DNA of 64,000 nucleotides, taken from the NCBI GenBank assembly GCA_963703285.1, contig OY969807.1, forward strand, positions 992,001-1,056,000, given 5' to 3'. The stretch comes from an uncultured Nitrososphaerota archaeon (lineage in GTDB: Archaea > Thermoproteota > Nitrososphaeria > Nitrososphaerales > Gagatemarchaeaceae). A program made the translations under genes and the position numbers. Below are positions 2,771 through 58,398 of this stretch, one piece after another; positions within the stretch are counted from its first letter, which is position 1, and each line of letters opens with the position of its first letter. Under the pieces are notes generated by a model. It was not told the DNA's origin and did no database searches. It saw nothing but the letters and a program-made list of their open reading frames with translations.

Positions 2771-3145
2771 GTGATATTCCAGAAGCCACCGTCCAAGTGT
2801 GGGTGCCCATACTGTGACTCCGGGTGCCTGTGCGGCGACTGCTCCGCTTGCACAAACATCGCCGCCGACAGACTGTTCGTGAGAAACGCGAAGAGGGCCG
2901 CGGTGCTGTGCTGTCTCTTTCTTGTGGTCGGGGGGTTCATGTTCTTCGCTCCGGTCGTCTCCTTGGGATCAGAGGCGCCCCTTACGACGGGGGTGCCCTC
3001 CTTCAGGATCCAGACGAGCGAGACGTCGACCGCAGAGCTTTGCTCCATCACGTTCTGCTACCTAGGCGCCGGTGCGGTGTACGCCAATGGTACGTACTAC
3101 CCTGTGACAAACCCAGTGGCGGGCCTCGGCGGTCCCAGGAAGTAA
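2771..3145 (+). CDS. Cys-rich single-pass membrane protein
   Basis: CGCPYCDSGCLCGDCSAC followed by a hydrophobic helix. GGAGG-type RBS before GTG 2771. Confidence 0.55.
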   Translation: MIFQKPPSKCGCPYCDSGCLCGDCSACTNIAADRLFVRNAKRAAVLCCLFLVVGGFMFFAPVVSLGSEAPLTTGVPSFRIQTSETSTAELCSITFCYLGAGAVYANGTYYPVTNPVAGLGGPRK

Positions 3146-3221
3146 GAGCCCAGGACCTCGGGGATGCTGTCGGCCCCAACCGAGGGTCTGATGCCTTGAT
3201 TGGTCTGGGCCGGGCCCAAGC

Positions 3222-3651
3222 TCACTTGCCATAGATGTCCTGGTTTTGTTGGATGTGCAGGGCGGTAAATGTCGGTATCGCAGCCGTGACAAAAGCAGCG
3301 TTCAGTATGCCTTCGTAGATTGGGAGGTTGAGTGCCTGAGTCAGGTCCCAGGCGAGGTCGAACGTGGCGAGGGCCAGGATGAAGGAGTAGAGTATCAGCC
3401 GGTAGCCCTTGTTCCTGACGAACAGGGCCAGCACGAGGATGGCCACCCCGCTGGCGAGGAAGGACTCGAGGCAATAGGGCAGAGTCGCCTGGGACAGGGG
3501 GTTGAGCTCAGAATCCTCCGGCCGAGAGGACGAAGTATGTGACAAAGGTAACTGAGACCTTGAGGAAGAGAGTGGCGAGCAGCATCTCTCCGGCGAGTCT
3601 ATCGAAGCCCAAGGCGAGATGGGGATGATGCAGCTTCCATCCCGCGACCAA
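3222..3651 (-). CDS. small membrane protein (DUF5658-like GxxExNP motif), frameshifted at ~3510
   Basis: Removing one base at 3510 joins ...VTFVTYFVLSAGGF to ELNPLSQ...; several hydrophobic helices. Confidence 0.5.
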
Positions 3652-3815
3652 CCCATCGAACATCGGCGCTCACACGAGAAAGCCGGTTTTTCTTGTCCAT
3701 ATAACGTGGGCACACGATTTTCATCCCTGAGAACCAGGACCCTTACGAGTGGTTGGGAGCCTTGGCTCCTAGCCACAGAGGGAGTTCGCTCTCCCGGTCC
3801 TCTGTGTCCCCTGAT

Positions 3816-5078
3816 TTAGGGCGAGCTGATGGAACGCTCCGGAGGGGCGCTGGCGCGTCCCTCGAGCAGTATCAGGGCCAGCGGGACCATAGCTAACGCG
3901 CCGCTGTAGAAGCCGGAGGGAGCCGTGGCCGGGCTACCATTGCCGACTTCGAATATTGCGATAAGGGTTGTGTTTTGGTCAAGTGTCAACGTCCTGGTCG
4001 CGTTGGTGCTGCCGGTGTCACTCCACCGGACGAACTTCAGGTCGCTGTAAGACGACATCTGCGCCGTGTATGTGTCACCCGCTATGAGCACGAACGGCAG
4101 CAGTGTGCCACCTGTGTAGGATCCAGTGAAGGGTTCGTAGGCGCCTGGAGGCGTGACGGTGACCCAGAGCCCGGGGGACCGTTCAACGTACCCCGTGTTG
4201 CTCACCGTGTTGCCGATCACCGTGCCGTTCTGGTACTCCGCTATCACGTTGAGGGTTGCGGCCTGTGACGGCGGAACATACTGATAGAGAGCGTCGAAGG
4301 AAGCACTCGTCGATCCGGTCGAGCTGAACGTTAGGAAATCGTAGTTGTTCAGTTCCCCATCCGAGAAGTGCCTGAAGTAGTAGTTGCCCGAAGAGTACGC
4401 GACCACCTGATACTGCAGCCCGGGCTCCAGGTTCTGGAACGTGGTCGGCGTAGTGCCGTTCTATATCGTGTATCCATCGACCGCCAGGTAGACGACGAAT
4501 CCGCTGAGCGCGGTCCCATTGAGATCGTTGCTTGCGACCGAGATGCTGTAGGGCGTCGCAGGCGGAGGCTGCGGGGTGGTCGTGAAGACCGCCGTCGCGG
4601 TCGTACCGGATGAGTTCGCGGCGACAGGCAGGACCCTCGAGGAGAATCCTCCTGACCAGTGGTTAAAGTAGAGGTTCTTGAAGTCAGAGACCGTCACCGT
4701 ATAGTTGTCCCCACTCGTCGTGTTGAACGTTACCGGAGTGTATCCGGTGGCGACCTCTGTGCCGTTGAGCGCCAGCTCCGTGTAGACGCCCTTCAAGGTG
4801 GTCCCGTTTGAGTACTGCGAGGTCACCAGTACGGCCGAGCCCGACTTCGGCGAGCCTCCAGTGCTTGTGGACGTGGATGTTGTGGATGCGGTGGATCTCG
4901 TGGAGGACACGCCCTGGCTACTCGTGGTTGTGGTGTTGGTACCCGTCTTTGAGTGACTCACGCCCAAAAAGTCAGCGCTGAAGAGGATGACGCCAGCGAT
5001 AACGGCTATCATGAGGACCACCGCTACTATGATAGGTGCGGCAGAGGCTCCGGGTGACCTGTGTTTCCGTGTCAACAA
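3816..5078 (-). pseudogene. cell-surface protein with three repeated beta domains, interrupted by an in-frame TAG at 4461-4463
   Basis: ORFs 4461-5078 and 3816-4406 share a frame (GYTI*NGTTPTTFQNL). N-terminal signal/TM, Ser/Thr linker, repeats ending YFNHWSGG / YFRHFSDG / KFVRWSDT, and a C-terminal hydrophobic tail. Confidence 0.7.
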
Positions 5079-45195: not shown

Positions 45196-46182
45196 ATGCG
45201 AAAGACCACCTTCGGAATCGTCCTTCCGACTAGGGGCGTCCTGTTCTCTGGCGCCGACCCTAGGAAAGACGTTATCGAACTCAGCAAGCTCACCGAGGAG
45301 TACGGATACGACGGCGTGTGGGCCGGCGACAGCATACTGGCGAAGCCCCGACTGGACTCCATCGCGGTCCTCTCGGCTGTCGCGGGGGCGACCGAGAAGG
45401 TGAAGCTCGGGACTTCCTGCTTCGCTAGCTTCCCCATCAGGCACCCGATACTCATGGCCTACCAGTGGGCCACGCTGGATCAGCTCTCTGGAGGGAGGAC
45501 GATACTGGTGGTCTGCCAGGGAACGCCGACCACCCACGGGAAGATATACAGGAACGAGTACGACGCCTTCGGAATCCCGCCGTCCGAGAAGGTCGAGAGA
45601 TCGAACGAGGGCATTGAAATCCTGAGGAAGCTGTGGAAGGGTGACAACGTCTCCTACGACGGGAAAATCTACAAGTTCAAGGACGTGACGATGCTCCCCA
45701 AGCCCGCCCAGAAGGACTGCCCCATCTGGATAGCGTCCAACCCCAGGTCGACGGGGGAGCTCGAGGGCGCGCCAGGGAACATAGAGGGGAACTTCGAGAG
45801 GGTAGGAAAGTACGCGGACGGGTGGATGACCACGATGGTGACGCCGAAGGAGTACGACGAGGACCTGACCAAGGTCCTCAGCTACGCCAAGAAGTATGGC
45901 AAGAGCAAATCGAAGTTCAAGGCGTCGCTGTATTACAATGTGAACATGGGCGAGAAGGAGAAGGCTGGAGCGGAAGCGGTCGACTTCCTGACCAAGTACT
46001 ACAGAGAGGACGCATCTCACGTGCTAGACAAGTGGGTCGCGTTCGGGAACAGGGCCGACGTCATGAAGAAGCTCGAGGCCTTCGTGGACGCGGGGGTCGG
46101 AGACTTCAACATCAGGTTCGTGGCCTGGGACCAGATAAAGCAGCTCAAGAGGTTCAGCAAGGAGATCCTTCCCTCCTTCTAG
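45196..46182 (+). CDS. LLM-class oxidoreductase
   Basis: GYDGVWAGDS, ATLDQLSGGR, PKPAQ...PIWIA. Confidence 0.9.
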   Translation: MRKTTFGIVLPTRGVLFSGADPRKDVIELSKLTEEYGYDGVWAGDSILAKPRLDSIAVLSAVAGATEKVKLGTSCFASFPIRHPILMAYQWATLDQLSGGRTILVVCQGTPTTHGKIYRNEYDAFGIPPSEKVERSNEGIEILRKLWKGDNVSYDGKIYKFKDVTMLPKPAQKDCPIWIASNPRSTGELEGAPGNIEGNFERVGKYADGWMTTMVTPKEYDEDLTKVLSYAKKYGKSKSKFKASLYYNVNMGEKEKAGAEAVDFLTKYYREDASHVLDKWVAFGNRADVMKKLEAFVDAGVGDFNIRFVAWDQIKQLKRFSKEILPSF

Positions 46183-46186
46183 CGGG

Positions 46187-47435
46187 CTACCAGTGTACCT
46201 TCTCGAGGGCCGTGAGGGACTCGACCCCGTCGGAGGTGACGACGAGGCAGTCCTCGATGACCGCCGTACCGAAGTCGAGTATGTGCGCCATGGGCTCGAA
46301 GGCAAACGACATGTTCCTCCGGAGCCTGGTGTCGGGTTGCCCCATCGACGGTATCTCGAAGAAGGAGGTCGCTATCGCATGGTGGACCATCAGACCGAGG
46401 TAGATCCTGCCCGCGGTACCGCTCCCTCAGGCCCGAGGCGCGGGCGAGCTCCTCGGACCTCTTTAGCAGCTTTGAGACTCGGACGCCGGGCCGCATCATC
46501 CCGGTAAGAGTCTCGTAGGCGTTCTCGATGACGTCAAGGACCCGCCGCTGCTCTCGGTTCGCCCCTCCTATCACCACGGTCCGCGACATGTCGCTCTGGT
46601 ACCCGTACTTGACGGCGCCCATGTCGAGGTAGACCATGTCCCCCTTCTCCATCCTCCTCGGGGTCGGGTAGCTGTGCTTGATCCCCGACCTCGGACCCGA
46701 GTTGGCTATCGAGAAGCCGGAGTGCGCACCCTCCTTCGTCATGGTGTAGTTCGCGACGGCGGCGACCTCGCTCTCGGACCTACCGGGCGAGATGGCCTCT
46801 ATGGAGGCCTCCATCGCCCGCGCGGTGATCGAGCCCACATCCCGAAGCATCCCCACCTCCCTCTGGCTCCTTATGCTCTTGACGAGGGTGTATTCGGGCG
46901 AGAAGTCCACCCAGGCCACCTTCGCGCTGGAAGAGAGGGACACCCATATCGGCATCGGGAGGTTCTCCCCTCCGACGAGCCCCACCGTCCTAGCTCCGGC
47001 CCTGGCGAGGGACTCGGCAATCACCCGGGCGAACTCGCGGGGGTCGTGCCTTACCGGCCGGTAGTCCTCGATCCACGTCATCCACGCGTAGGAGTTGATT
47101 GGCTCACCGTGTAGCACCGCGTCGGTGACGATCTCAGGCGCCCCGTCCATCGGGAGGATCAGGGCCGCCCTTCCGAATGGGATGTAGTTCGAGAGGTAGA
47201 CCAGGTCCCCGGGGTCGCCCTGATCACCGAAGACCAGGAGGGCATCAACCGCTCTCTTCCCCATCGAGCTCCTGACCCTCCGAATCCTTTCTTCGTACTC
47301 GCTGACTGGGAACGGGAGGTCGAGGTACCTCTTCCTGGTCTGCCAGTCGTACGGGACCTGGGACGGGTACCCTGAGCTTGGAGGCGGAGAGCGAGCTCCC
47401 CCTGCCAACGTCCGCCTCCACGCGTGCGGGACCAA
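46187..47435 (-). CDS. M24-family peptidase/amidohydrolase, frameshifted at ~46417
   Basis: Creatinase-like N-domain and YLDMG...SDMSRT, then HH...FEP...IED in the shifted frame. Start uncertain. Confidence 0.8.
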
Positions 47436-47442
47436 CCGGCCA

Positions 47443-49116
47443 CTAGCCCCCGCGCGGGACGACCGGGAGCGTGAGGCACGAAGGGTGCCGGGCGTCGTGG
47501 AAGACCTTCTGCTCCGCGACCGCGAGCTCCGAGTCCTGGCCGAACGCGTTGCCCGTGTTCGGGTTCCTGTCGTACTTGGGGAACGAGCTGCTCGAGACGT
47601 GGAGCCTGATGCGGTGGTCCCTCAGGAAGACGTTGCTCGTCACCCAGAGGTCTATCGAGAACTCGTAGACTTCGCCGGGCTTGAGCAGTGCCGGCCTGTC
47701 GAGCTTCCTCCTGTAGCGGCCCCGGACTATCCCCTCCGTCAGGTGCATTGAGTAACCGTTCGGATGGACGTCGACGAGCTGCGCCCAGAAATCCGTGTCC
47801 CTGGCCGACGTTGACGCGAAGAGGGTGACGGCGACGGGACCGGTGACCTCGAGGTCCCGCGCGAGGGGCGGGGTGGAGTACACGAGGACATCGTCCCTCC
47901 TCTCGATGGGCCTCTGGTCGAAGGGCCCCTCGGCGCCCCCATCGTCGATGTTCGGGACGGGGTTGGCTGGGTCGTAGGAGAAGGTGTCAGGCGGCGAGCG
48001 CGATGAAGGTGCCCTCCTCTCTAGGATGCCGTTGCCGAGCGAGGTGTTGGCGCCGCCGCGGCTGCGGAGGTAATAGCGGGTGGGGGTCATCCCACCGGGG
48101 GGCCACTCCCGCCTCGTCACCCAGGCGTTCCGGCCCATTGCGAATGTCTCTACAGGAGGTCCCCTCTCGACCCCGTTCCTGACGCCCTTGAGCCAGCGGT
48201 CGAACCACCTGAGCTTCGCACCCAGGAGGTCCACCAGCGCCGTCTCGCCGAAGTCGACCTCGCCGAGGGCCCGCGAGACGTTGACGTGGTGCTGCCACGG
48301 GCCGATTATCAGCCTCTGGTTCCTCCGAACCCTGGCCGGCCTGGACGAGGTCATCCCGACGAAGTTCTTGTGGGTCCCCACTATGTCGTCATCGTACCAC
48401 CCTGAGATGTGCAGCACCGGGACGCCGACGCGCCTCAACTTGTCCTCGTAGAACGCCTTGGTCCAGTAATCATCGGCGGATGGGTGCTCGACCCACTCCT
48501 TCCAGATTCGGGACCTCCTCCCGAACCCCTCATCCATCGTCGCGAGGGGCAGGTGGGAGAGCAATCTCCGGTCGTAGAGCGACATGACGGTGTTCCTCTT
48601 GCCCTCGATCAGGGCCATCCACTCGGCCATCCAGAGCACCAGTGCCCCGTTCTGGTAAGGGACGTTGAGGACCGGGTCGGGGAGCGAGACGGTGCAGACC
48701 ATCGCCCTCAGGCCGGGGGGCCTTAGGACGGCCGCGGTCCACTGGTTCCACGCCGCGTAGGAGGCTCCTATGGTGCCGAGCGATCCGTTCGACCACTTCT
48801 GCTTGGCGCACCATGCCAGCGTGTCGAACCCGTCGCGCCCGTCGTCGTCCTGGAACGGCCTGAATGTTCCCTCCGAGTCGTTCTTCCCCCGGCAGTCCTG
48901 TATCACGTATGCGTACCCGTGCTTGGCGAAGAAGAGAGCCTCAGCGTTCTGGGAGGCTTGGTAGCCCTCCACCGTGCGGTACGGGGTCCGGGTGAGTATC
49001 ACCGGGAAGCGCCCTTGGACGTCTGGCCTGAAGACGTCGGAGGAGAGACGCGTCCCGTCCCTCATCCTCTGCTGAACGCCAAGCTCCAGCTTGACTTGAT
49101 GGTCAGCGCCGGACAT
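47443..49116 (-). CDS. CocE/NonD family serine hydrolase
   Basis: MRDGTRL, RTPY, QDCRG, GASY, GWYD, GPWQH. Confidence 0.92.
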   Translation of the reverse strand: MSGADHQVKLELGVQQRMRDGTRLSSDVFRPDVQGRFPVILTRTPYRTVEGYQASQNAEALFFAKHGYAYVIQDCRGKNDSEGTFRPFQDDDGRDGFDTLAWCAKQKWSNGSLGTIGASYAAWNQWTAAVLRPPGLRAMVCTVSLPDPVLNVPYQNGALVLWMAEWMALIEGKRNTVMSLYDRRLLSHLPLATMDEGFGRRSRIWKEWVEHPSADDYWTKAFYEDKLRRVGVPVLHISGWYDDDIVGTHKNFVGMTSSRPARVRRNQRLIIGPWQHHVNVSRALGEVDFGETALVDLLGAKLRWFDRWLKGVRNGVERGPPVETFAMGRNAWVTRREWPPGGMTPTRYYLRSRGGANTSLGNGILERRAPSSRSPPDTFSYDPANPVPNIDDGGAEGPFDQRPIERRDDVLVYSTPPLARDLEVTGPVAVTLFASTSARDTDFWAQLVDVHPNGYSMHLTEGIVRGRYRRKLDRPALLKPGEVYEFSIDLWVTSNVFLRDHRIRLHVSSSSFPKYDRNPNTGNAFGQDSELAVAEQKVFHDARHPSCLTLPVVPRGG

Positions 49117-49136
49117 TGGGTGTCAGCCCGACCCTA

Positions 49137-50783
49137 TCACTCTGGCGGGATCTCTTTCGCTATGAGGCCGAGGTTCACGCCCTGCTGGCGCCTGGCGAGC
49201 CAGGCGACGATGTAGATCACAGCGCCGAGGACGAAGGTCGGGATGATGCCCTCCTCGAGTATGCTTCCGAACGTCGGTCCTCCGATGGCGGGCGCGAGCA
49301 GCGCGTAGACCACGTAGATAGAAATCACCAGGGAGAGGGCGCCGAGTATGGTTATGAACGGCAAACCTCCGTACTTCTTCTTGGCCGTCTCGTCAGACGC
49401 CGACGCAAAGAGGTCCTTCCTCCGGTACGGGTAGACTATCGCGGCTATCGCCACGAAGATGAAGCAGATGAAAGTGCCCGCGGTCGAGTACGAGAAGAGG
49501 ACGCTCAGGTAGCTCGTCTTGAAGATGGAGATGTAGAGGTAGATGAGCGAGCCAATGATCATCAGGATCACGGCGTTCAATGGCGTCTTGGTCCTCTCGT
49601 TGACGTTGGAGAAGACGTTCGGCAGGACGCGGTCGAAGGACCACGCGAAGATGTTCCTGCTGAGGACGAAGAGCTCCGAGACGAACATGGCGATGATGGT
49701 GCCTGCGAACGCCAGGTTGAAGAGCACAACAAGGAAGGTGTTGTGGGTCCAGAACATCGAGAGGCCCGAGGAGAGCGGGATCGTGATGTACGGGTTCGCT
49801 CCACCTGTATACCAGAGCGAAGCTATCGCGTTCACGAAGGCTGGGCCCTCGTTGTAGTATGCAGCGGCGAATATGATGGTCACGACGATCATGAAGATGA
49901 TGCTTCCGCCGACCTGGGCTAGGATCTGGCTTCTCCTGTTCTGCTTGACCTCACCCGCGAAGTAGGCGGGGTAGTAGAAGCCCAGGTAACCGAGGAGGCC
50001 GAGCGCGCCGGCGGCCAGCGTGGTCGAAGTGAAGACGGGCGGGATGCCCGGGTAGGAGGGAAGCAGGGCGTTCGACTCCCCTGCGTTTATCACAGCCTGG
50101 TAGGCCGAGGTGCCGTTCACGGAGGGATACAACGAGTTGAAGTTGGAGATGAACGTCGACTTGCCCGCGGAGAGGACCGTCACGATGAATATGACTCCGA
50201 TTATCACTGCCAGTATTGTCCAGTACTTCACGACAGCCCCCGAGAGCCTCGTGCTCCCCACGACGATGGCGCCCGTGACCAAGACCGAGATCGCGGCGAT
50301 CCAGAAGGTGGGGCCGGGCTGCTGCAGCGTGCTCGCGAGGCTGGTGTACGAGGCGTTGTTCGTCAGAATTCCGAGGTCGTAAAACATCGGGGAGAACGAC
50401 CACTGGGATATCCATGGGCTGACCGAGCCGATGGTTGCGAGCGCCAGGAGGGTGAGCGAGAAGTTGATCACGAAACCGGTCCCCGAGTTGATGACCCTGC
50501 TCGTCCAGACGTAGTCGCCGCCCGTCCTAGGCATCGCGATTGAGAAGAGCGCGTACATCCCGGCGACCGGAAGGATGAGGAGAAGACCGATCAAGGGGCC
50601 GACGATCGGATTCGCGTCGGGGTAGAATGCAGGCGTGAAGACTGTCGCATTGAAGACGTAGAGCAGCCCCATTCCGGAGAGCGCCATGCCGAGAGCCTCG
50701 AACCCGGAAATCTGTTTTGTCAGTCCTGTCGCTTCCCTCACGAACGACACAGGCGACTTAGCCAACGGGAAGAGGCCCCTCAT
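49137..50783 (-). CDS. APC-family amino acid permease
   Basis: FVREATGL, MPRTGGDYVW, FAWSFDRVLP, KTPLNA; about 12 TM. Confidence 0.9.
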   Translation of the reverse strand: MRGLFPLAKSPVSFVREATGLTKQISGFEALGMALSGMGLLYVFNATVFTPAFYPDANPIVGPLIGLLLILPVAGMYALFSIAMPRTGGDYVWTSRVINSGTGFVINFSLTLLALATIGSVSPWISQWSFSPMFYDLGILTNNASYTSLASTLQQPGPTFWIAAISVLVTGAIVVGSTRLSGAVVKYWTILAVIIGVIFIVTVLSAGKSTFISNFNSLYPSVNGTSAYQAVINAGESNALLPSYPGIPPVFTSTTLAAGALGLLGYLGFYYPAYFAGEVKQNRRSQILAQVGGSIIFMIVVTIIFAAAYYNEGPAFVNAIASLWYTGGANPYITIPLSSGLSMFWTHNTFLVVLFNLAFAGTIIAMFVSELFVLSRNIFAWSFDRVLPNVFSNVNERTKTPLNAVILMIIGSLIYLYISIFKTSYLSVLFSYSTAGTFICFIFVAIAAIVYPYRRKDLFASASDETAKKKYGGLPFITILGALSLVISIYVVYALLAPAIGGPTFGSILEEGIIPTFVLGAVIYIVAWLARRQQGVNLGLIAKEIPPE

Positions 50784-50925
50784 CGTGATATTTTAATTGT
50801 GCGAATATGACGACATCCTTGGAATTTTAGTACAGGAGCGGTCCCACCGCCTGCAGGGCCTGGGAGATTAGGGACTAGCATAAGGCTATCACAGAGATAA
50901 ATAGCGATTTGACGCGAAATCGTCC

Positions 50926-52398
50926 ATGGAAGTCCCCTCCAAGATGTACATCGACGGAAGCTGGGTCGATTCCGAGAGTGCCGAGACCATGATGGTGCTG
51001 AATCCGGCCAATCAGGAGGTTCTCGCGAACGTCCCGAAGGGGGGACGGGATGACGCACTGAGCGCCATCGACGCGGCCGCAGGGGCGATGAAGACGGCCG
51101 AGTCGATGACCGCCTTCGAGAGGTCGAAGATCCTTCTGAGGGTCGCCAACCTACTGGAGCAGAACGCGGAGGAGATGGCTACCCTCATCTCGAAGAACGT
51201 CGGCAAACCAATCGCCGACTCCGAGGCGGAGACCTCGAGGGGAATACTCACGCTGACGTTCGCCTCCGAGGAGGCGAAGAGGATCTACGGACAGACGATA
51301 CCGCTCGACTCCCACCCGTTCCCGCCTGGGAACCAGAACAGGCTGGGCTTCACCATTCGCGAACCGATCGGCGTCGTTGGTGCCATCTCGCCGTTTAACT
51401 TCCCGCTCAACCTGCTGCTGCACAAGGTGGCACCCGCGATAGCTGCAGGGAACACCGTGGTGGTCAAGCCGCCGAGCGACGGCCCTCTCCCGGGGCTGAT
51501 GGTGGCTAAGCTCTTCGAGGATGCGGGTCTCCCTCCGGGCGTACTCAACGTCGTCCTCGGACCGGGTGGCGAGGTGGGGGACGAGATAGTCACAAGCCGG
51601 AAGGTGGGCGCCATCAGCTTCACCGGCGAGACGGAGACGGGAAGGGAGATTGCGGAGAAGGCTGCCCGCACCAACAAGAAGGTCATCCTCGAACTCGGGG
51701 GGCACAATCCGCTGATCGTCCTAGACGACGCCAAGGTGGTGAACGCCGTCAGCTCGGCTCTTGCAGGAACGTTCGGCTACGCAGGTCAGGTCTGCACTGC
51801 GACGAGGAGGATAATCCTGAGCGAGAGGGTCAAGGAGAGGTTCATGGCCCAGTTCGAGCAGGCGGTAGGGACGCTGAGGGTCGGAGACCCACTGGACCGG
51901 ACCACGAACGTCGGGCCCGTGATAAACGTCCGGAGCCTCGAGAAGATTGACGGTCTCGTCAGGGAGGCGGCCGAGAAGGGCGCGAAGGTCAGGATGGGAG
52001 GCTCGCGAATCAACTACGGGGAGCTCGCGCGGGGCAACTACTACTCGCCCACGATACTAGAGGGAGTCATCGGGAGTATGGGAATCGCCCAGAAGGAGGT
52101 CTTCGGGCCGGTGTCGGCGATCATGGAAGCCTCGAGCGACGACGCGGCCGTCGAGCTGGCAAACGACACAATCTACGGGCTGCAGGCTTCCATCTACACC
52201 TCAGACCTTGCCAGGGGAATCAGGCTCGCCAAGAGGGTGAAGGCGGGCGCGGTCCTAATCAACGACAGGACCAACCTGCGATGGGACAACGCCCCGTTCG
52301 GCGGCGTAAAGATGAGCGGCATGGGCCGGGAGGGCGTCAACCTCGCGATAGGTGAGCTGACCGAGCTGAAGTTCGTAGTCGCAAACATCGCGGAGTAG
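50926..52398 (+). CDS. aldehyde dehydrogenase
   Basis: PFNFP, FTGE, LELGG, GQVC, EVFGP, PFGGVKMSG. Confidence 0.95.
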   Translation: MEVPSKMYIDGSWVDSESAETMMVLNPANQEVLANVPKGGRDDALSAIDAAAGAMKTAESMTAFERSKILLRVANLLEQNAEEMATLISKNVGKPIADSEAETSRGILTLTFASEEAKRIYGQTIPLDSHPFPPGNQNRLGFTIREPIGVVGAISPFNFPLNLLLHKVAPAIAAGNTVVVKPPSDGPLPGLMVAKLFEDAGLPPGVLNVVLGPGGEVGDEIVTSRKVGAISFTGETETGREIAEKAARTNKKVILELGGHNPLIVLDDAKVVNAVSSALAGTFGYAGQVCTATRRIILSERVKERFMAQFEQAVGTLRVGDPLDRTTNVGPVINVRSLEKIDGLVREAAEKGAKVRMGGSRINYGELARGNYYSPTILEGVIGSMGIAQKEVFGPVSAIMEASSDDAAVELANDTIYGLQASIYTSDLARGIRLAKRVKAGAVLINDRTNLRWDNAPFGGVKMSGMGREGVNLAIGELTELKFVVANIAE

Positions 52399-54000: not shown

Positions 54001-54543
54001 GTGATTCCCAGACACTTCTTCTTGACCAACGGTGTCGGAAGGCACAAGGAGCGGCTCCAATCGTTCGAGTTAGCGCTCAGGGATGCAGGAATCCAGCACT
54101 GCAATCTCGTCGGCGTCTCGAGCATAATCCCAGCCGGGTGCAAGCTGATTCCGAGGGAGAAGGGCAGGAAGATGCTCACGCCGGGCGAGATCACATTCGT
54201 CGTCCTGGCGCGGAACGAGACGAACGAGCCCCACCGCCTGATTGTCTCCTCGGTCGGTCTGGCCATTCCCTCGAAGAAAGGCCAGTATGGTTACATCTCC
54301 GAGCACCACACCTTCGGGCAGACTGAGGAGTCCGCGGGAGACTACGTCGAGGACCTCGCTGCGACAATGCTCGCGACAACGATGGGCATCGAGTTCAACC
54401 CCGAGACGGCCTGGCACGAGAGGGAGCAGCTGTTCAAGTCGAGCGGGATGATTATCAAGACCACCCACATAACGCAGTCCGCCGCTGGCGACAAGAACGG
54501 TCTCTGGACCTCGACGGTCGCGGCCGCGGTCTTCGTACCCTGA
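54001..54543 (+). CDS. pdaD: pyruvoyl-dependent arginine decarboxylase
   Basis: [22 protein letters not shown] (Ser-Ser cleavage site) and YGYISEH. Confidence 0.92.
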
Positions 54544-54575: not shown

Positions 54576-55238
54576 CTAACCCTGAACCGTGCCGGTCAGG
54601 AGGACCAGATACTCGGTGGATCCCGATTGTATGTCCAGCGACAACGTTGCTGTGTTGCCGACGAAGCTGCCCCTGGCCGTTCCCTGCAGGATGAACGCGC
54701 CGGAGGTTGTTGTTGTTCCTTGTCCGGAGATGGATGACGCGGATGGGCTCATCTGGCCCGAGCCGGATGAGATGGTCGATGTCGTGCTGCCGACCACGAC
54801 GCCCCCTGATATGGAGAGGGTGTAGGCCTCGGTGAGGTTGCCGGTCACCGTGAACGTCAGCGAACCGGAAGCCGTTCCGTTCTCGCTGCGATTCCCGACG
54901 ACGAAGTACTGGCCGCTCGTGCTGGTGAAGGTGATCTTCGTCCCTACGGAGACGTCAGCTCTGGTCTGGAAGTTCCCGAAGCCTGGGCCTCCCTGTCCCA
55001 TGCCGCCTCCCTGAGAAGGAGGAAAGCCCATGCCGCCGGGTCCTTGGCCCACACAGTTGCCGATGCCCGAGATGCCCGAGCTAGAGCTCGAGGACGCTGT
55101 GGTCGATGTCGAGGACGTGGAGGTCGATGTCTGCGCTGTCGCTGCCAGGATGGATGGAGATGCGAGAAGGATTGCGATGATGCCTATGGCCGATGCTGTG
55201 ACAATCGCTGTTTTCGCGAACTTGGTTGTCATGTTCAA
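54576..55238 (-). CDS. secreted Ser/Gly/Thr-rich hypothetical protein
   Basis: Signal peptide, low-complexity linker, beta-rich C-terminal domain. Confidence 0.65.
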   Translation of the reverse strand: MNMTTKFAKTAIVTASAIGIIAILLASPSILAATAQTSTSTSSTSTTASSSSSSGISGIGNCVGQGPGGMGFPPSQGGGMGQGGPGFGNFQTRADVSVGTKITFTSTSGQYFVVGNRSENGTASGSLTFTVTGNLTEAYTLSISGGVVVGSTTSTISSGSGQMSPSASSISGQGTTTTSGAFILQGTARGSFVGNTATLSLDIQSGSTEYLVLLTGTVQG

Positions 55239-55464: not shown

Positions 55465-57345
55465 ATGAAACCTCGCAAGAATGCCAAACCAAAAACCTCA
55501 GCTAAAGCTCCATCAACGGCAAGGGGCTTGGTTGCGACAACGAAGATGGGTCTCGGGGGAATCCGCGACAGTCCCGACCCGAGGGACCATTCGTATGTGC
55601 CTCCCGCCGACGTCCTGAGGAACCTTCCCCCGAAGTTAGACCTCAGGAAGCAGTTCCCTCCGGTCTACAACCAGGGTCAGATCAACAGCTGCCACGATTC
55701 GGAGACCGAAGTCCTGACAGACACTGGCTTCAAACTCTTCTCGGAGCTGAGTGGTTCGGAGTTACTCGCCACTGTCAATCCGAGTAACTCTGAGCTATCG
55801 TTCGAAAGGCCATCTAGATTGCTGAAGTTACGATACAAAGGGCCCATGGTCTGCGCTGAAAACTGGAGCCTGAATTTCAAGGTCACGCCGGAACACAAGA
55901 TGTTGGTTAGGAAGTGGGACGAGGCGAGGCGCAGACTCTCGAGTGAGTATACGCTCGTCGAAGCCGAGAGTCTCGGCTGGTACTGCGGGTTGATGAACCG
56001 CGTAATCTGGCGAGGCGACGCGGGGTCGTCCGAAAATTTCACCTTGCCAGGAGTGCTCCACAAGCACAAACCCCAGAGGGAGCCACTGACGGTGTCCATG
56101 GGCTCCTGGCTAAGGTTCCTTGGAATCTACCTCGCCGAAGGGACGATTTTGGAAGAAGAAGGTCAATACAAGATTCAGTTGGCGGCGAGCAAGATGAGGG
56201 AGAAGGAGTTCATACGGCAGGTCCTTTCAGACATCGGGCAGCACTACCTTGAGCTCGAGGATCGGTTCACATTCTCGAACCGTCGACTGTACGAGACTAT
56301 GGAAGGGCTCGGCCTGAGAGGGGTGCACGCCCCCAAGAAGTTCGTCCCGGATTTCGTATTCCACCAGAGTGCGCAGAACATCAAGGAGTTACTCCGTGGC
56401 CATTGGATGGGAGATGGGGGTGGAGACGATAACCGGCGAGCGCATTACACGTCTTCGACAAGACTCGCAGATGACCTCCAGCGCCTAGTATTCCTCTCTG
56501 GAAATGCAACGTCATGGACCTCAAGAGCTCAACAAGTGTCGGTGATGACCGACGGCAGGGTGATAGAGCCCGGGTATGACATGCAACGAGTTTCAGTGAG
56601 GGAGCAGAAGAACCTCTCAATCGTCAGAAAAGAGCAGATATTCACTGATGACTACGACGGCTATGTCTACTGCGCTGAGGTCCCCCGATTCCACACCCTC
56701 GTGACGCGTCGGCGCGGAAAGATACTCATTTCAGGAAACTGTACGGCAAACGCCATCGCGGCTGCGATGGAGTTCGACGCCATTAGCCAGGGCGTTAAGG
56801 AGGTCTTCACCCCCTCACGCCTTTTCGTCTACTACAACGAACGGGTCATGACGAACACTCAGGGCCAGGACTCCGGGGGACAAATCAGAGACGGGATAAA
56901 GAGCATAGCGAAGCAGGGAGACTGCCCCGAGGTCCACTGGCCCTACCTGGCCAAGATGGTGACCCAGGAACCTGCCAAGGGGTGCTACACCCGCGCCAAG
57001 AGTTTCACTGCGCTCGAGTACCAGAGGATGGGGCACAACCTCGACCACATGAAGGCCTGCCTCGCGTCGGGGTATCCGTTCGTCTTCGGCTTCGTCGTCT
57101 ACTCCAGCTTCGAAGGCAGCGCCGTCAAGCAGAGCGGGCACCTCGGCTTGCCGAAGAAGGGGGAGAAGATGGTCGGTCTCCACGCCGTTGTCGCGTGCGG
57201 GTACGACGACGCCAAGCGCTGGTTCATCGTAAGGAATTCGTGGGGAAGGCAATGGGGTCTGGAAGGCTACTTCACGATGCCCTACGAGTACCTTCTGGAT
57301 CCGAAGTTATCGCACGACTTCTGGACCATCCGCGTCGTCAGGTGA
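55465..57345 (+). CDS. papain-like C1A cysteine protease (xylellain-like) containing an intein
   Basis: PDPRDH, LPPKLDLR, NQGQINS[intein]CTANA, SRLFVYYNER, GLHAVVACGY, IVRNSWG, GYFTMPY. Confidence 0.92.
   Translation: MKPRKNAKPKTSAKAPSTARGLVATTKMGLGGIRDSPDPRDHSYVPPADVLRNLPPKLDLRKQFPPVYNQGQINSCHDSETEVLTDTGFKLFSELSGSELLATVNPSNSELSFERPSRLLKLRYKGPMVCAENWSLNFKVTPEHKMLVRKWDEARRRLSSEYTLVEAESLGWYCGLMNRVIWRGDAGSSENFTLPGVLHKHKPQREPLTVSMGSWLRFLGIYLAEGTILEEEGQYKIQLAASKMREKEFIRQVLSDIGQHYLELEDRFTFSNRRLYETMEGLGLRGVHAPKKFVPDFVFHQSAQNIKELLRGHWMGDGGGDDNRRAHYTSSTRLADDLQRLVFLSGNATSWTSRAQQVSVMTDGRVIEPGYDMQRVSVREQKNLSIVRKEQIFTDDYDGYVYCAEVPRFHTLVTRRRGKILISGNCTANAIAAAMEFDAISQGVKEVFTPSRLFVYYNERVMTNTQGQDSGGQIRDGIKSIAKQGDCPEVHWPYLAKMVTQEPAKGCYTRAKSFTALEYQRMGHNLDHMKACLASGYPFVFGFVVYSSFEGSAVKQSGHLGLPKKGEKMVGLHAVVACGYDDAKRWFIVRNSWGRQWGLEGYFTMPYEYLLDPKLSHDFWTIRVVR
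55690..56739 (+). mobile_element. 350-aa intein with LAGLIDADG homing endonuclease in the C1 protease
   Basis: Block A CHDSETEVLT, block B VTPEHK, endonuclease motifs FLGIYLAEG and LLRGHWMGDG, block F VYCAEV, block G ISGN/C. Confidence 0.93.
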
Positions 57346-57741: not shown

Positions 57742-57939
57742 GTAGCAGAACGCAGGAACCTGCGCCGTGATTCAAGCCTGATGAAGAGTCCAGCGATTCT
57801 CCGCGTGCGTCCCCGGGGTGCTCTCGGTAGTCCCCCTTGGGTCGTCGCTGCCTCCGACGGATGCGCTGTTAGAACACGGGAAGCGGACCTCGCGAGCCTT
57901 TTAGACCTCACCGACCCAATCTTTGACGGCGTAACCAAG

Positions 57940-58398
57940 ATGTCGACCAACGAAAATCCTTACGGGGCGTTCAACTTCACGGTCTCGATCAGCGGAGTCC
58001 CCGCCGCAGATTTTGCAGAGTGCGTCCTCCCGGCCGTCTCCATAGATGCCATAGAGTACAGGCAGGGCTCGGACTCCGAAGAGAGCGTCCACAAGCTACC
58101 CGGCCTTGTTAGGTATGGTCACCTTGTCCTTAAGAGGGGCATCGCGAGTTCGGCAGGCTCTCTTGCCCTCTGGGACTGGTTCTCAGGATTCGTCCAGGGC
58201 AATGGGACGCTGGCAACGATGACGGTCACCCTTCTCGATCGTGCGAGGGTACCGGTCTTCCAGTGGGCATTCACGAACGCGTGGCCCGTGAAGTACGAGA
58301 CGCCGGTTCTGAACGGGAAGACAAGCACGCTTGCCATTGAGACCCTGGAGGTCTCGGTGGAGGGAATGAAGTTCACGGCCCTCGGCCAGGGCCCCTAG
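57940..58398 (+). CDS. T4 gp19-like / eCIS-type contractile tail tube protein
   Basis: NPYGAFNF, IEYRQG...HKLPG, LVLKRG, LWDW, WAFTNAWPVKY, AIETLE. Confidence 0.9.
   Translation: MSTNENPYGAFNFTVSISGVPAADFAECVLPAVSIDAIEYRQGSDSEESVHKLPGLVRYGHLVLKRGIASSAGSLALWDWFSGFVQGNGTLATMTVTLLDRARVPVFQWAFTNAWPVKYETPVLNGKTSTLAIETLEVSVEGMKFTALGQGP

Follow-up and report, generated by a model that had tools for sequence, protein, structure and literature searches.

A predicted class 1 LAGLIDADG intein at the active-site cysteine of a papain-family peptidase gene in an uncultured Nitrososphaerota archaeon

Inteins reside overwhelmingly in replication, repair, and nucleotide-metabolism proteins, according to the survey by Novikova et al. 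(2016). The gene described here lies in contig OY969807.1 of an uncultured Nitrososphaerota archaeon (assembly GCA_963703285.1) and encodes a papain-family cysteine peptidase whose active-site motif is divided by an intein. The stretch that was analyzed, called the window in this text, is 64,000 nucleotides long (contig positions 992,001 to 1,056,000), and all coordinates without another label are positions in it. The locus raises the question of why an intein sits exactly at the catalytic cysteine of a protease: is it a parasite of a conserved site, or is it a switch that keeps the enzyme off until splicing? Comparison with intein-bearing and intein-free relatives indicates that this is most probably a mobile class 1 homing intein that parasitizes a conserved active-site motif, and that its presence is best explained by invasion and loss and not by selection for regulation.

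Anatomy of the interrupted peptidase gene

The gene is a single unbroken frame on the forward strand, from TTG 55423 or ATG 55465 to 57345. From ATG 55465 it continues for 1881 bases without interruption and encodes a 626-aa precursor (P0001). Four candidate start codons (TTG 55423, ATG 55465, TTG 55528, and ATG 55546) give spliced lengths of 249-290 aa, and the protein in the database is the 605-aa form that begins at TTG 55528. Sequence conservation in relatives from about residues 1-8 onward favors ATG 55465 as the probable start. With this start the predicted spliced peptidase is 276 aa, and the precursor is arranged as ...PPVYNQGQINS / CHDSETEVLT...(350 aa)...RRGKILISGN / CTANAIAAAMEF... 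(Table 1).

Several lines of evidence place the exteins in the papain family. Pfam Peptidase_C1 (PF00112) matches residues 470-606 with 41.8 bits (cut-off 20.7), and it covers only the C-terminal part because the intein divides the peptidase domain. For genome annotation this is of practical importance, as Pfam detects only the C-terminal half of an intein-split peptidase. With 69 homologues as input, AlphaFold2 (AF2) modeled the full-length precursor confidently (mean pLDDT 87.7). Foldseek divides this model cleanly, with the exteins matching xylellain (3OIS; 45% identity, E 3.9e-22, target TM 0.70), followed by papain and cathepsins, and the insert matching LAGLIDADG inteins. The intein-free orthologue P0124, which is 79% identical to the window C-extein, aligns with xylellain 3OIS over the whole chain (E 5.5e-68). 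Its segment ...NQGQVNSCTSNA... aligns onto ...DQGRIGSCTANA... of xylellain and QGQCGSCW of procerain B, and its ...NQGQVNSC... pairs with the QGxCGSC of procerain and cathepsins. Therefore, Cys426 is equivalent to papain Cys25, and Gln70 is the oxyanion glutamine.

The residues Q70, C426, H573, and N591 occur in active-site order, and all four are invariant in an alignment of 69 insert-bearing homologues that are 43-75% identical to the window protein. The gene product is best explained, from its sequence, as a cytoplasmic xylellain-type papain-family (C1A) cysteine peptidase interrupted by an intein. Because the catalytic residues of the host are invariant in intein-bearing alleles, these genes are still selected as peptidases, which implies working splicing; dN/dS in the intein and C-extein is 0.06-0.23. 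The unspliced precursor is very likely inactive as a peptidase, as would be the case for any active-site intein, because the catalytic cysteine is the +1 nucleophile and the predicted oxyanion glutamine sits on the other extein.

The insert has the sequence blocks of a class 1 intein: Cys1, a block B Thr-x-x-His, and a terminal Asn followed by Cys at +1. In the same 69 homologues, the invariant intein residues are C76, T141, H144, G220/A224/G226, G312/G316/D317, C403, H410, and S423-G424-N425. Each of the two LAGLIDADG motifs carries an acidic residue (E225 and D317), and E225 is conserved in at least 90% of the homologues. Where inteins usually have a penultimate His and an Asp in block F, this one has Gly424 and Cys403, and Cys403 aligns with the F:4 Asp of PI-PkoII.

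The model and profile searches point to the same identification. The predicted fold of the insert is that of a HINT domain, with Foldseek matches to TliVMA 7qsu (E 2.7e-17), PI-PkoII 2cw7, PhoVMA, PI-SceI, and PI-PfuI. NCBIfam models of intein-bearing PolII, DnaB, RpoA'', and GyrA match the middle of the insert (best E 5e-9), and the matches lie on the intein parts of the PolII, DnaB, and RpoA'' models. PI-PkoII is the sole solved chain with a sequence match of E <0.001 to the insert, and it aligns at LAGLIDADG motif 2. A precomputed match to Pfam PF14890 (Intein_splicing) is present on some homologues.

Class 3 inteins are defined by Trp at B:12, Cys at F:4, and Thr at G:5 and by the lack of a position-1 nucleophile, as described in PMC7664689. 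The window intein resembles them in its conserved Cys at block F position 4, which is their first nucleophile. A class 3 assignment was rejected, because the window intein has Cys1 and carries Met146 where class 3 has Trp (B:12) and Ser423 where class 3 has Thr (G:5). By its sequence, the window intein is assigned to class 1.

Splicing would begin with an N-S acyl shift at Cys76 (Cys1), assisted by the Thr and His of block B. Cys426 at +1 would then attack the thioester in a trans-thioesterification, and the terminal Asn425 would cyclize. A final S-N shift would yield ...NQGQINS-CTANA..., a peptidase of about 276 aa equal to the intein-free alleles. Cys403 and His410 presumably replace the F:4 Asp and the penultimate His in this sequence of steps.

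A preliminary description of this stretch, made from its letters alone, had anticipated much of this anatomy, and it was right in every checkable detail. It read the Q-G-x-x-x-S-C motif as split by a 350-aa intein at 55690-56739, and the frame and intein-free alleles agree. It gave a spliced product of about 276 aa, which matches exteins of 75 and 201 aa from ATG 55465. The catalytic His (GLHAV) and Asn (RNSWG) that it saw intact downstream are the H573 and N591 found invariant above. Its proposal that one cysteine serves as both splice and protease nucleophile, with the oxyanion glutamine on the opposite extein, fits C426, which is the intein +1 residue and the papain catalytic cysteine, and Gln70, which is in the N-extein. 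The Cys1, TxxH, two LAGLIDADG motifs, F:4 Cys, and Gly-Asn end that it listed are all present and invariant or nearly so in the 69 homologues.

Table 1. Positions of the extein, intein, and catalytic features of the interrupted peptidase gene in the window.
Feature	Position	Strand	Details
N-extein, C1A peptidase	55465..55689	+	75 aa; C-terminal NQGQINS; predicted oxyanion Gln70 at 55672-55674
Predicted class 1 intein with nested LAGLIDADG homing endonuclease	55690..56739	+	350 aa, Cys1 (C76) to Asn350 (N425)
Intein block B, T-P-E-H (T141, H144)	55885..55896	+	Invariant in 69 of 69 homologues
LAGLIDADG motif 1 (LRFLGIYLAEGT), acidic residue E225	56110..56145	+	G220, A224, G226 invariant
LAGLIDADG motif 2 (LLRGHWMGDGG), acidic residue D317	56389..56421	+	G312, G316, D317 invariant
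Intein block F (YDGYVYCAEVPRFHTLVTRR), Cys403 at F:4 and His410	56653..56712	+	Both invariant
Intein block G (KILISGN), penultimate Gly424, terminal Asn425	56719..56739	+	S423, G424, N425 invariant
C-extein, C1A peptidase	56740..57345	+	201 aa and stop (56740-57342 coding); N-terminal CTANAIAA
Catalytic residues of the C-extein	Cys426 56740-56742, His573 57181-57183, Asn591 57235-57237	+	

Distribution of the intein

Presence and absence of the intein were compared at the same locus in close relatives. In a search of 41 genomes, the window's included, 12 of the window's genus were found to hold the peptidase gene. The intein at the catalytic cysteine (site a) is present in three of these (G000, G001, and G003); G001 and G003 have the identical insertion place, at 76% and 71% identity. 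Eight genomes have intein-free genes only (G002, G004, G006, G009, G010, G014, G015, and G022), and two carry another intein at a different place, site c (G021 and a second gene copy in G003). In the intein-free orthologues the N- and C-extein matches abut exactly, joining at Ser/Cys. The insert-bearing locus L022 and the insert-free loci L023 and L024 share the peptidase neighborhood, with gp19-like, orf111, AsnC-type regulator, GDT1, LUD, TrmB, and DUF4382 genes in common, and PvlArgDC is upstream of the peptidase in the window and L024. The preliminary description had proposed a search for intein-free alleles and same-site insertions, and both exist, including at the syntenic locus. The peptidase gene is single copy in the window's 2.25-Mb genome. 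In G009, which has an intact intein-free copy, there is also a second, fragmentary peptidase copy with three in-frame TGA codons (G009:C2:609808-610548).

A metagenomic pair illustrates how precise the difference can be. P0006 (603 aa) carries the intein, P0182 (253 aa) is intein-free, and their exteins are identical on both sides of the junction; P0182 has precisely the sequence expected after splicing of P0006. Four soil DNA runs from one study, possibly the window's own source, gave low-depth contigs that span both intein junctions with no differences. No contig joining across the intein was found in these four runs, which at a depth of 2-10 carries no information.

Site-a inteins are common in protein databases. 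A word-indexed protein search returned at least 588 proteins of 344-1096 aa with E<=1e-3 among 8000 scored candidates, and nearly all of the best 120 long matches cover >90% of the query. In a joint alignment, 118 of the 119 long matches examined have >250 residues in the intein columns. The identification of the insert as an intein, as judged from at least 588 long homologues and the confident AF2 model, is far beyond chance. Among the best 120, the motif of the N-junction was matched in 102 rows and that of the C-junction in 87. A minority form has the insert one residue earlier (...G/C...GN/SC...), with Ser at +1; it occurs at both junctions in six rows (P0031, P0040, P0075, P0101, P0111, and P0117) and at one junction only in P0069 (C-junction) and in P0046 and P0065 (N-junction). 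Intein-free relatives are far more common, with at least 7995 at E<=1e-3 among 8000 scored candidates. Most database entries for intein-bearing C1 peptidases are labeled 'hypothetical'.

The same arrangement was found in clustered metagenomic proteins, viral contigs, and genomes. A HMMER search with the intein alone against 1.84 billion cluster representatives gave 7256 matches at E<=1e-3, 3916 at <=1e-10, and 265 at <=1e-30. Among the best 150 representatives of the intein lineage (50% identity), 49 also match a C1 peptidase profile built from 120 intein-free peptidases; both exteins are matched in 31 of these, and the C-extein resumes at profile position 50-53 in 24 of the 31. A single-protein query found no relative in viral contigs; an alignment query then yielded loci, and 16 of the 80 kept carry the same-site C1 intein, matching through both exteins. 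In species-representative genomes, a same-site C1 intein was present in 9 of the 80 loci kept. The archaeal titles among these nine are Thaumarchaeota archaeon, Candidatus Gagatemarchaeum stordalenia, and Nitrososphaerales archaeon, and the bacterial titles are Chloroflexia bacterium, Abditibacterium sp., two Omnitrophota, Pseudonocardiaceae bacterium, and Arthrobacter terricola. Together with the viral loci, these records spread the intein over archaea, several bacterial phyla (Actinomycetota among them), and phages.

Phylogenetic trees of the host and the intein were compared. The extein-only tree had 239 rows and 237 columns and was built with FastTree; P0117, which has a truncated C-extein, was dropped before changes were counted. 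On this tree at least 10 changes of the intein label are required, and shuffled labels needed 80 on average and never fewer than 71. The window falls in a well-supported 20-row extein clade of 16 intein-free and 4 intein-bearing rows. A larger well-supported extein clade around the window (91 rows) contains nine inteins, and in the intein-only tree (118 rows) these group together at 100% local support; thus one intein lineage spread or was lost repeatedly within that host clade. Between the three same-genus alleles, dN/dS of the intein is 0.06-0.09, indicating strong purifying selection. A decayed copy was also found: in L111 (Nocardia miyunensis, 2842-4158) Ser stands at F:4 and in place of the terminal Asn, and the frame stops about 20 residues into the C-extein.

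The intein lineage, recognizable as 'C[HFY]DxxTE[VI]LT ... GN', extends to other host genes, which were named from flanking motifs such as the P-loop, Walker B DEA, and GNKG. Inteins in these hosts are 25-35% identical over the intein and have the same blocks, the F:4 Cys, and the Gly-Asn end; they differ in insertion site and host gene. Hosts in relatives include an ATP-grasp (PurD-like) protein and the P-loop of a Hel308-like helicase. Elsewhere they include haloarchaeal PolB and a Trichodesmium sugar-nucleotide epimerase/dehydratase, and in phage contigs terminase, RNA polymerase, and others. The ATP-grasp protein carries one or two inteins of this lineage in L014 (G014:C7; 1135-aa frame), L013, L015, L016, and L017, with the junctions GEMG/CYDDKTEVLT...WCGN/TS and EWT/CFDEETEVLT...FSGN/CRFG, and the helicase P-loop intein is in L018.

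Residue counts were made over 152 intein domains of the wider lineage. Splicing residues are nearly constant (Cys1 in 150, the block B Thr in 150 and His in 151, and the terminal Asn in 146), as are those of the endonuclease (Glu or Asp in motif 1 in 148, and Asp in motif 2 in 147). The F:4 Cys is present in 138 domains and the penultimate Gly in 149. The +1 residue varies, with Cys in 75 domains, Ser in 48, and Thr in 19. These counts indicate that the F:4 Cys and the Gly-Asn end are, by sequence comparison, traits of the intein lineage rather than features adapted to this protease.

A gene's most conserved codons are the expected targets of homing endonucleases. Two other inteins were found at active-site motifs of the same enzyme. 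The site c intein (...NSWGKQWGK/C...VHN/SGYF) is eight residues past the catalytic Asn and about 170 residues downstream of site a; it is about 375 aa long, runs from Cys1 to His-Asn, and has Ser at +1 (L019, G021:C9, 1954-3861; L020, G003:C84). The site b intein (P0077 and P0100) is two residues after the catalytic His, following GGHAV. Site b and site c inteins are homologous to each other (30-34% identity, E 1e-35 to 1e-51), and neither had a significant match to the site-a intein.

Parasite or switch

The preliminary description had offered two alternatives, a parasite of a conserved site and a built-in activation switch. The comparative evidence speaks for the first and not for the second. 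A parasite is favored because the intein is optional at an orthologous, syntenic locus within one genus, because identical exteins occur with and without it (P0006/P0182), and because the extein tree calls for 10 or more changes of the intein label. It is also favored because the LAGLIDADG acidic residues are conserved and because the Gly-Asn end and F:4 Cys recur in the same lineage in unrelated hosts. With its acidic residues kept and the intein under purifying selection, the endonuclease looks functional. It would cleave alleles that lack the intein at the conserved codons of the active site, and repair of the break would then insert a copy of the intein (homing). Such selfish spread, with the intein gained and lost by turns in the thaumarchaeal lineage, best accounts for its presence at this locus.

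Some observations weigh against a mobile parasite with working splicing. The tree sets were chosen differently, the long proteins by whole-protein score and the short proteins (<=343 aa) by C-extein score; the count of label changes is a lower bound on this biased sample, from FastTree only, and the short set is intein-free by length. Synonymous divergence has reached saturation among the three intein alleles of the genus (dS 0.9 to >2); therefore, there is no sign of recent arrival in the window genome, and the intein may have been inherited vertically there for a long time. The intein is also better conserved than its host (79% identity within the genus, where the C-extein reaches 73% and 62% and the N-extein 66% and 50%), which also fits a useful function. 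Cys1, Cys403, and Cys426 at the splice center could confer redox sensitivity. With Gly in place of the penultimate His and Cys in place of the F:4 Asp, efficient splicing is not assured, and no RNA sequencing run containing the stretch is listed. Finally, the Pfam scores are below the curated cut-offs, at 19.4 bits for PF14890 Intein_splicing (cut-off 35.8) and 16.2 bits for PF14528 LAGLIDADG_3 (cut-off 22.5).

The strongest competing explanation is an exapted conditional-splicing switch, in which the intein is retained because it cages the protease and thus makes a splicing-gated zymogen. Oxidation or metal would trap the precursor by disulfides or bound metal at Cys1, Cys403, and Cys426, and reducing conditions would release splicing and then protease activity. 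Such a switch would suit the double role of the catalytic cysteine as +1 nucleophile with Gln70 on the other extein, the invariance of Cys403 at F:4, and an intein under strong purifying selection that is more conserved than the exteins. Other natural inteins splice conditionally in response to redox state, salt, temperature, or substrate, as reported in PMC7765530 and PMC6195587. However, the intein is optional in close relatives at the same locus and between identical exteins. The F:4 Cys and Gly-Asn end are shared by lineage inteins with Ser or Thr at +1 (67 of 152) and occur in unrelated proteins. The retained endonuclease residues are explained by mobility, while a pure switch would not require them, and two other, unrelated inteins at other active-site motifs of the enzyme suggest the usual parasitism of conserved sites. 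Nothing in the comparative data points to conditional (e.g., redox-sensitive) splicing, and we consider this explanation unlikely.

A broader proposal joins two claims, that xylellain-type peptidases are a large undescribed intein host family in which independent intein lineages target the surroundings of each catalytic-triad residue (sites a, b, and c), and that the site-a form is a redox-gated zymogen. If it held, splicing would free the site-a peptidase only where the cytoplasm is reduced, and nature would have made a zymogen gated by splicing. Taken jointly, the two claims are improbable.

Decay is another conceivable explanation: the intein, having no penultimate His and no F:4 Asp, would no longer splice, and the peptidase gene would be a dead end. 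Decayed relatives do exist (L111 of N. miyunensis and the G009:C2 fragment with TGA stops). Against decay of the window gene, the frame is intact over its 1881 bases, and the splice residues and four catalytic host residues are present and invariant in homologues down to 43% identity. dN/dS in the intein and C-extein is low, as given above. The Gly-Asn end is normal for the lineage (149 of 152 domains) and could not persist without splicing, and splicing by inteins that lack a penultimate His is reported in PMC7664689. A dead end is accordingly very improbable. An ordinary inserted domain or gene fusion, to which only the Pfam scores below cut-off would point, is scarcely credible for an insert that has canonical splice residues at both ends, a predicted fold that agrees with solved inteins, precise absence from orthologues in which the active-site motif is restored, and homology to inteins in PolB, RNA polymerase, terminase, and helicase P-loops.

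Genomic surroundings and known systems

The parasitic intein proposed here is in an ordinary chromosomal setting. Judged by the names of its closest relatives, the window's organism is a thaumarchaeon (Nitrososphaerota). Neighbors of the peptidase gene include pyruvoyl arginine decarboxylase, aldehyde dehydrogenase, amino-acid permease, and S15 and M24 peptidases. Upstream, a run of peptide and amino-acid catabolism genes occupies 46179-52398 (M24 peptidase, S15 X-Pro dipeptidyl peptidase, permease, and aldehyde dehydrogenase). The pyruvoyl-dependent arginine decarboxylase (54001-54543, +) has 97.8% protein identity to its counterpart in G009, and the adjoining genes have 50-78%; this may indicate either unusually high conservation or recent exchange. 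Between it and the peptidase gene, 54576-55238 (-) encodes a 220-aa Ser/Thr/Gly-rich protein with an N-terminal hydrophobic segment, which is partly conserved in G009 and had no match to a Pfam or PHROG family. A lone T4 gp19-type tail-tube gene (57781-58398, +; PF06841, E 1.6e-32; PHROG tail tube) is 440 bases downstream of the peptidase gene. It is the only one in the genome, and it adjoins or is near the peptidase gene in three relatives. No sheath or baseplate genes were found among its scanned neighbors.

Xylellain of Xylella fastidiosa (3OIS) represents the short bacterial xylellain-type C1A peptidases, the group to which the window exteins belong. Xylellain and the described family have no intein, while the window gene has one. 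The structure paper on xylellain reportedly describes an N-terminal region that covers the active site, a point against the conditional-switch explanation. Xylellain-type C1A peptidases have been acquired by tailed phages and giant viruses, according to a 2023 survey of the papain family (PMC10380794), and the word 'intein' occurs 0 times in its main text. No description of an intein in a papain-family (C1) peptidase was found in the open full-text literature, a coverage that leaves InBase, MEROPS, and subscription journals outside. This agrees with the preliminary description, which knew of no characterized intein in a C1A protease. The C1-peptidase intein alleles appear to be a widespread but unpublished set. 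They offer a natural system for study of the homing cycle outside DNA-metabolism genes and a ready-made template for intein-caged cysteine proteases.

Proteases are known as intein hosts, namely ClpP in the Chlamydomonas eugametos chloroplast and LonB in Euryarchaeota (Novikova et al., 2016). The LonB intein is listed there under P-loop NTPase and not at a proteolytic nucleophile, while the window intein is at the nucleophile, and the archaeal supplement of that survey has only LonB under 'peptidase'. These hosts are serine or AAA+ proteases and are unrelated to the papain-type host in the window. The ClpP intein is said to have a penultimate Gly as well and to have spliced in E. coli only after this Gly was changed to His. 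Inteins without a penultimate His are reported to splice (PMC7664689).

Conditional inteins, such as those of mycobacterial DnaB and SufB and the salt-dependent intein of Halobacterium, are a precedent for stress-delayed maturation of a host protein (PMC6195587 and PMC7765530). The conditionality of the mycobacterial and Halobacterium inteins rests on biochemical assays, whereas the window intein is known from sequence.

The closest structural relatives are inteins of the VMA1, PI-PkoII, and PI-PfuI type, which gave the best structural matches (TliVMA, 7qsu and 7qss; PhoVMA, 7qst; PI-PkoII, 2cw7; PI-SceI, 1vde; and PI-PfuI, 1dq3). They share with the window intein the HINT domain, a nested two-motif LAGLIDADG endonuclease, Cys1, TxxH, the terminal Asn, and Cys at +1, and PI-PkoII also has a sequence match to blocks E and F. 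Identity in the structural alignments is 10-13%, and the window intein differs in having Gly instead of the penultimate His and Cys instead of Asp at F:4. Their hosts are ATPases or polymerases, while the host in the window is a peptidase. Compared with these systems, the unusual features of the window gene are the host family and the coincidence of the splice nucleophile and the catalytic nucleophile in a protease; on present evidence the gene adds a host family to those known for mobile LAGLIDADG inteins and points to no new mechanism.

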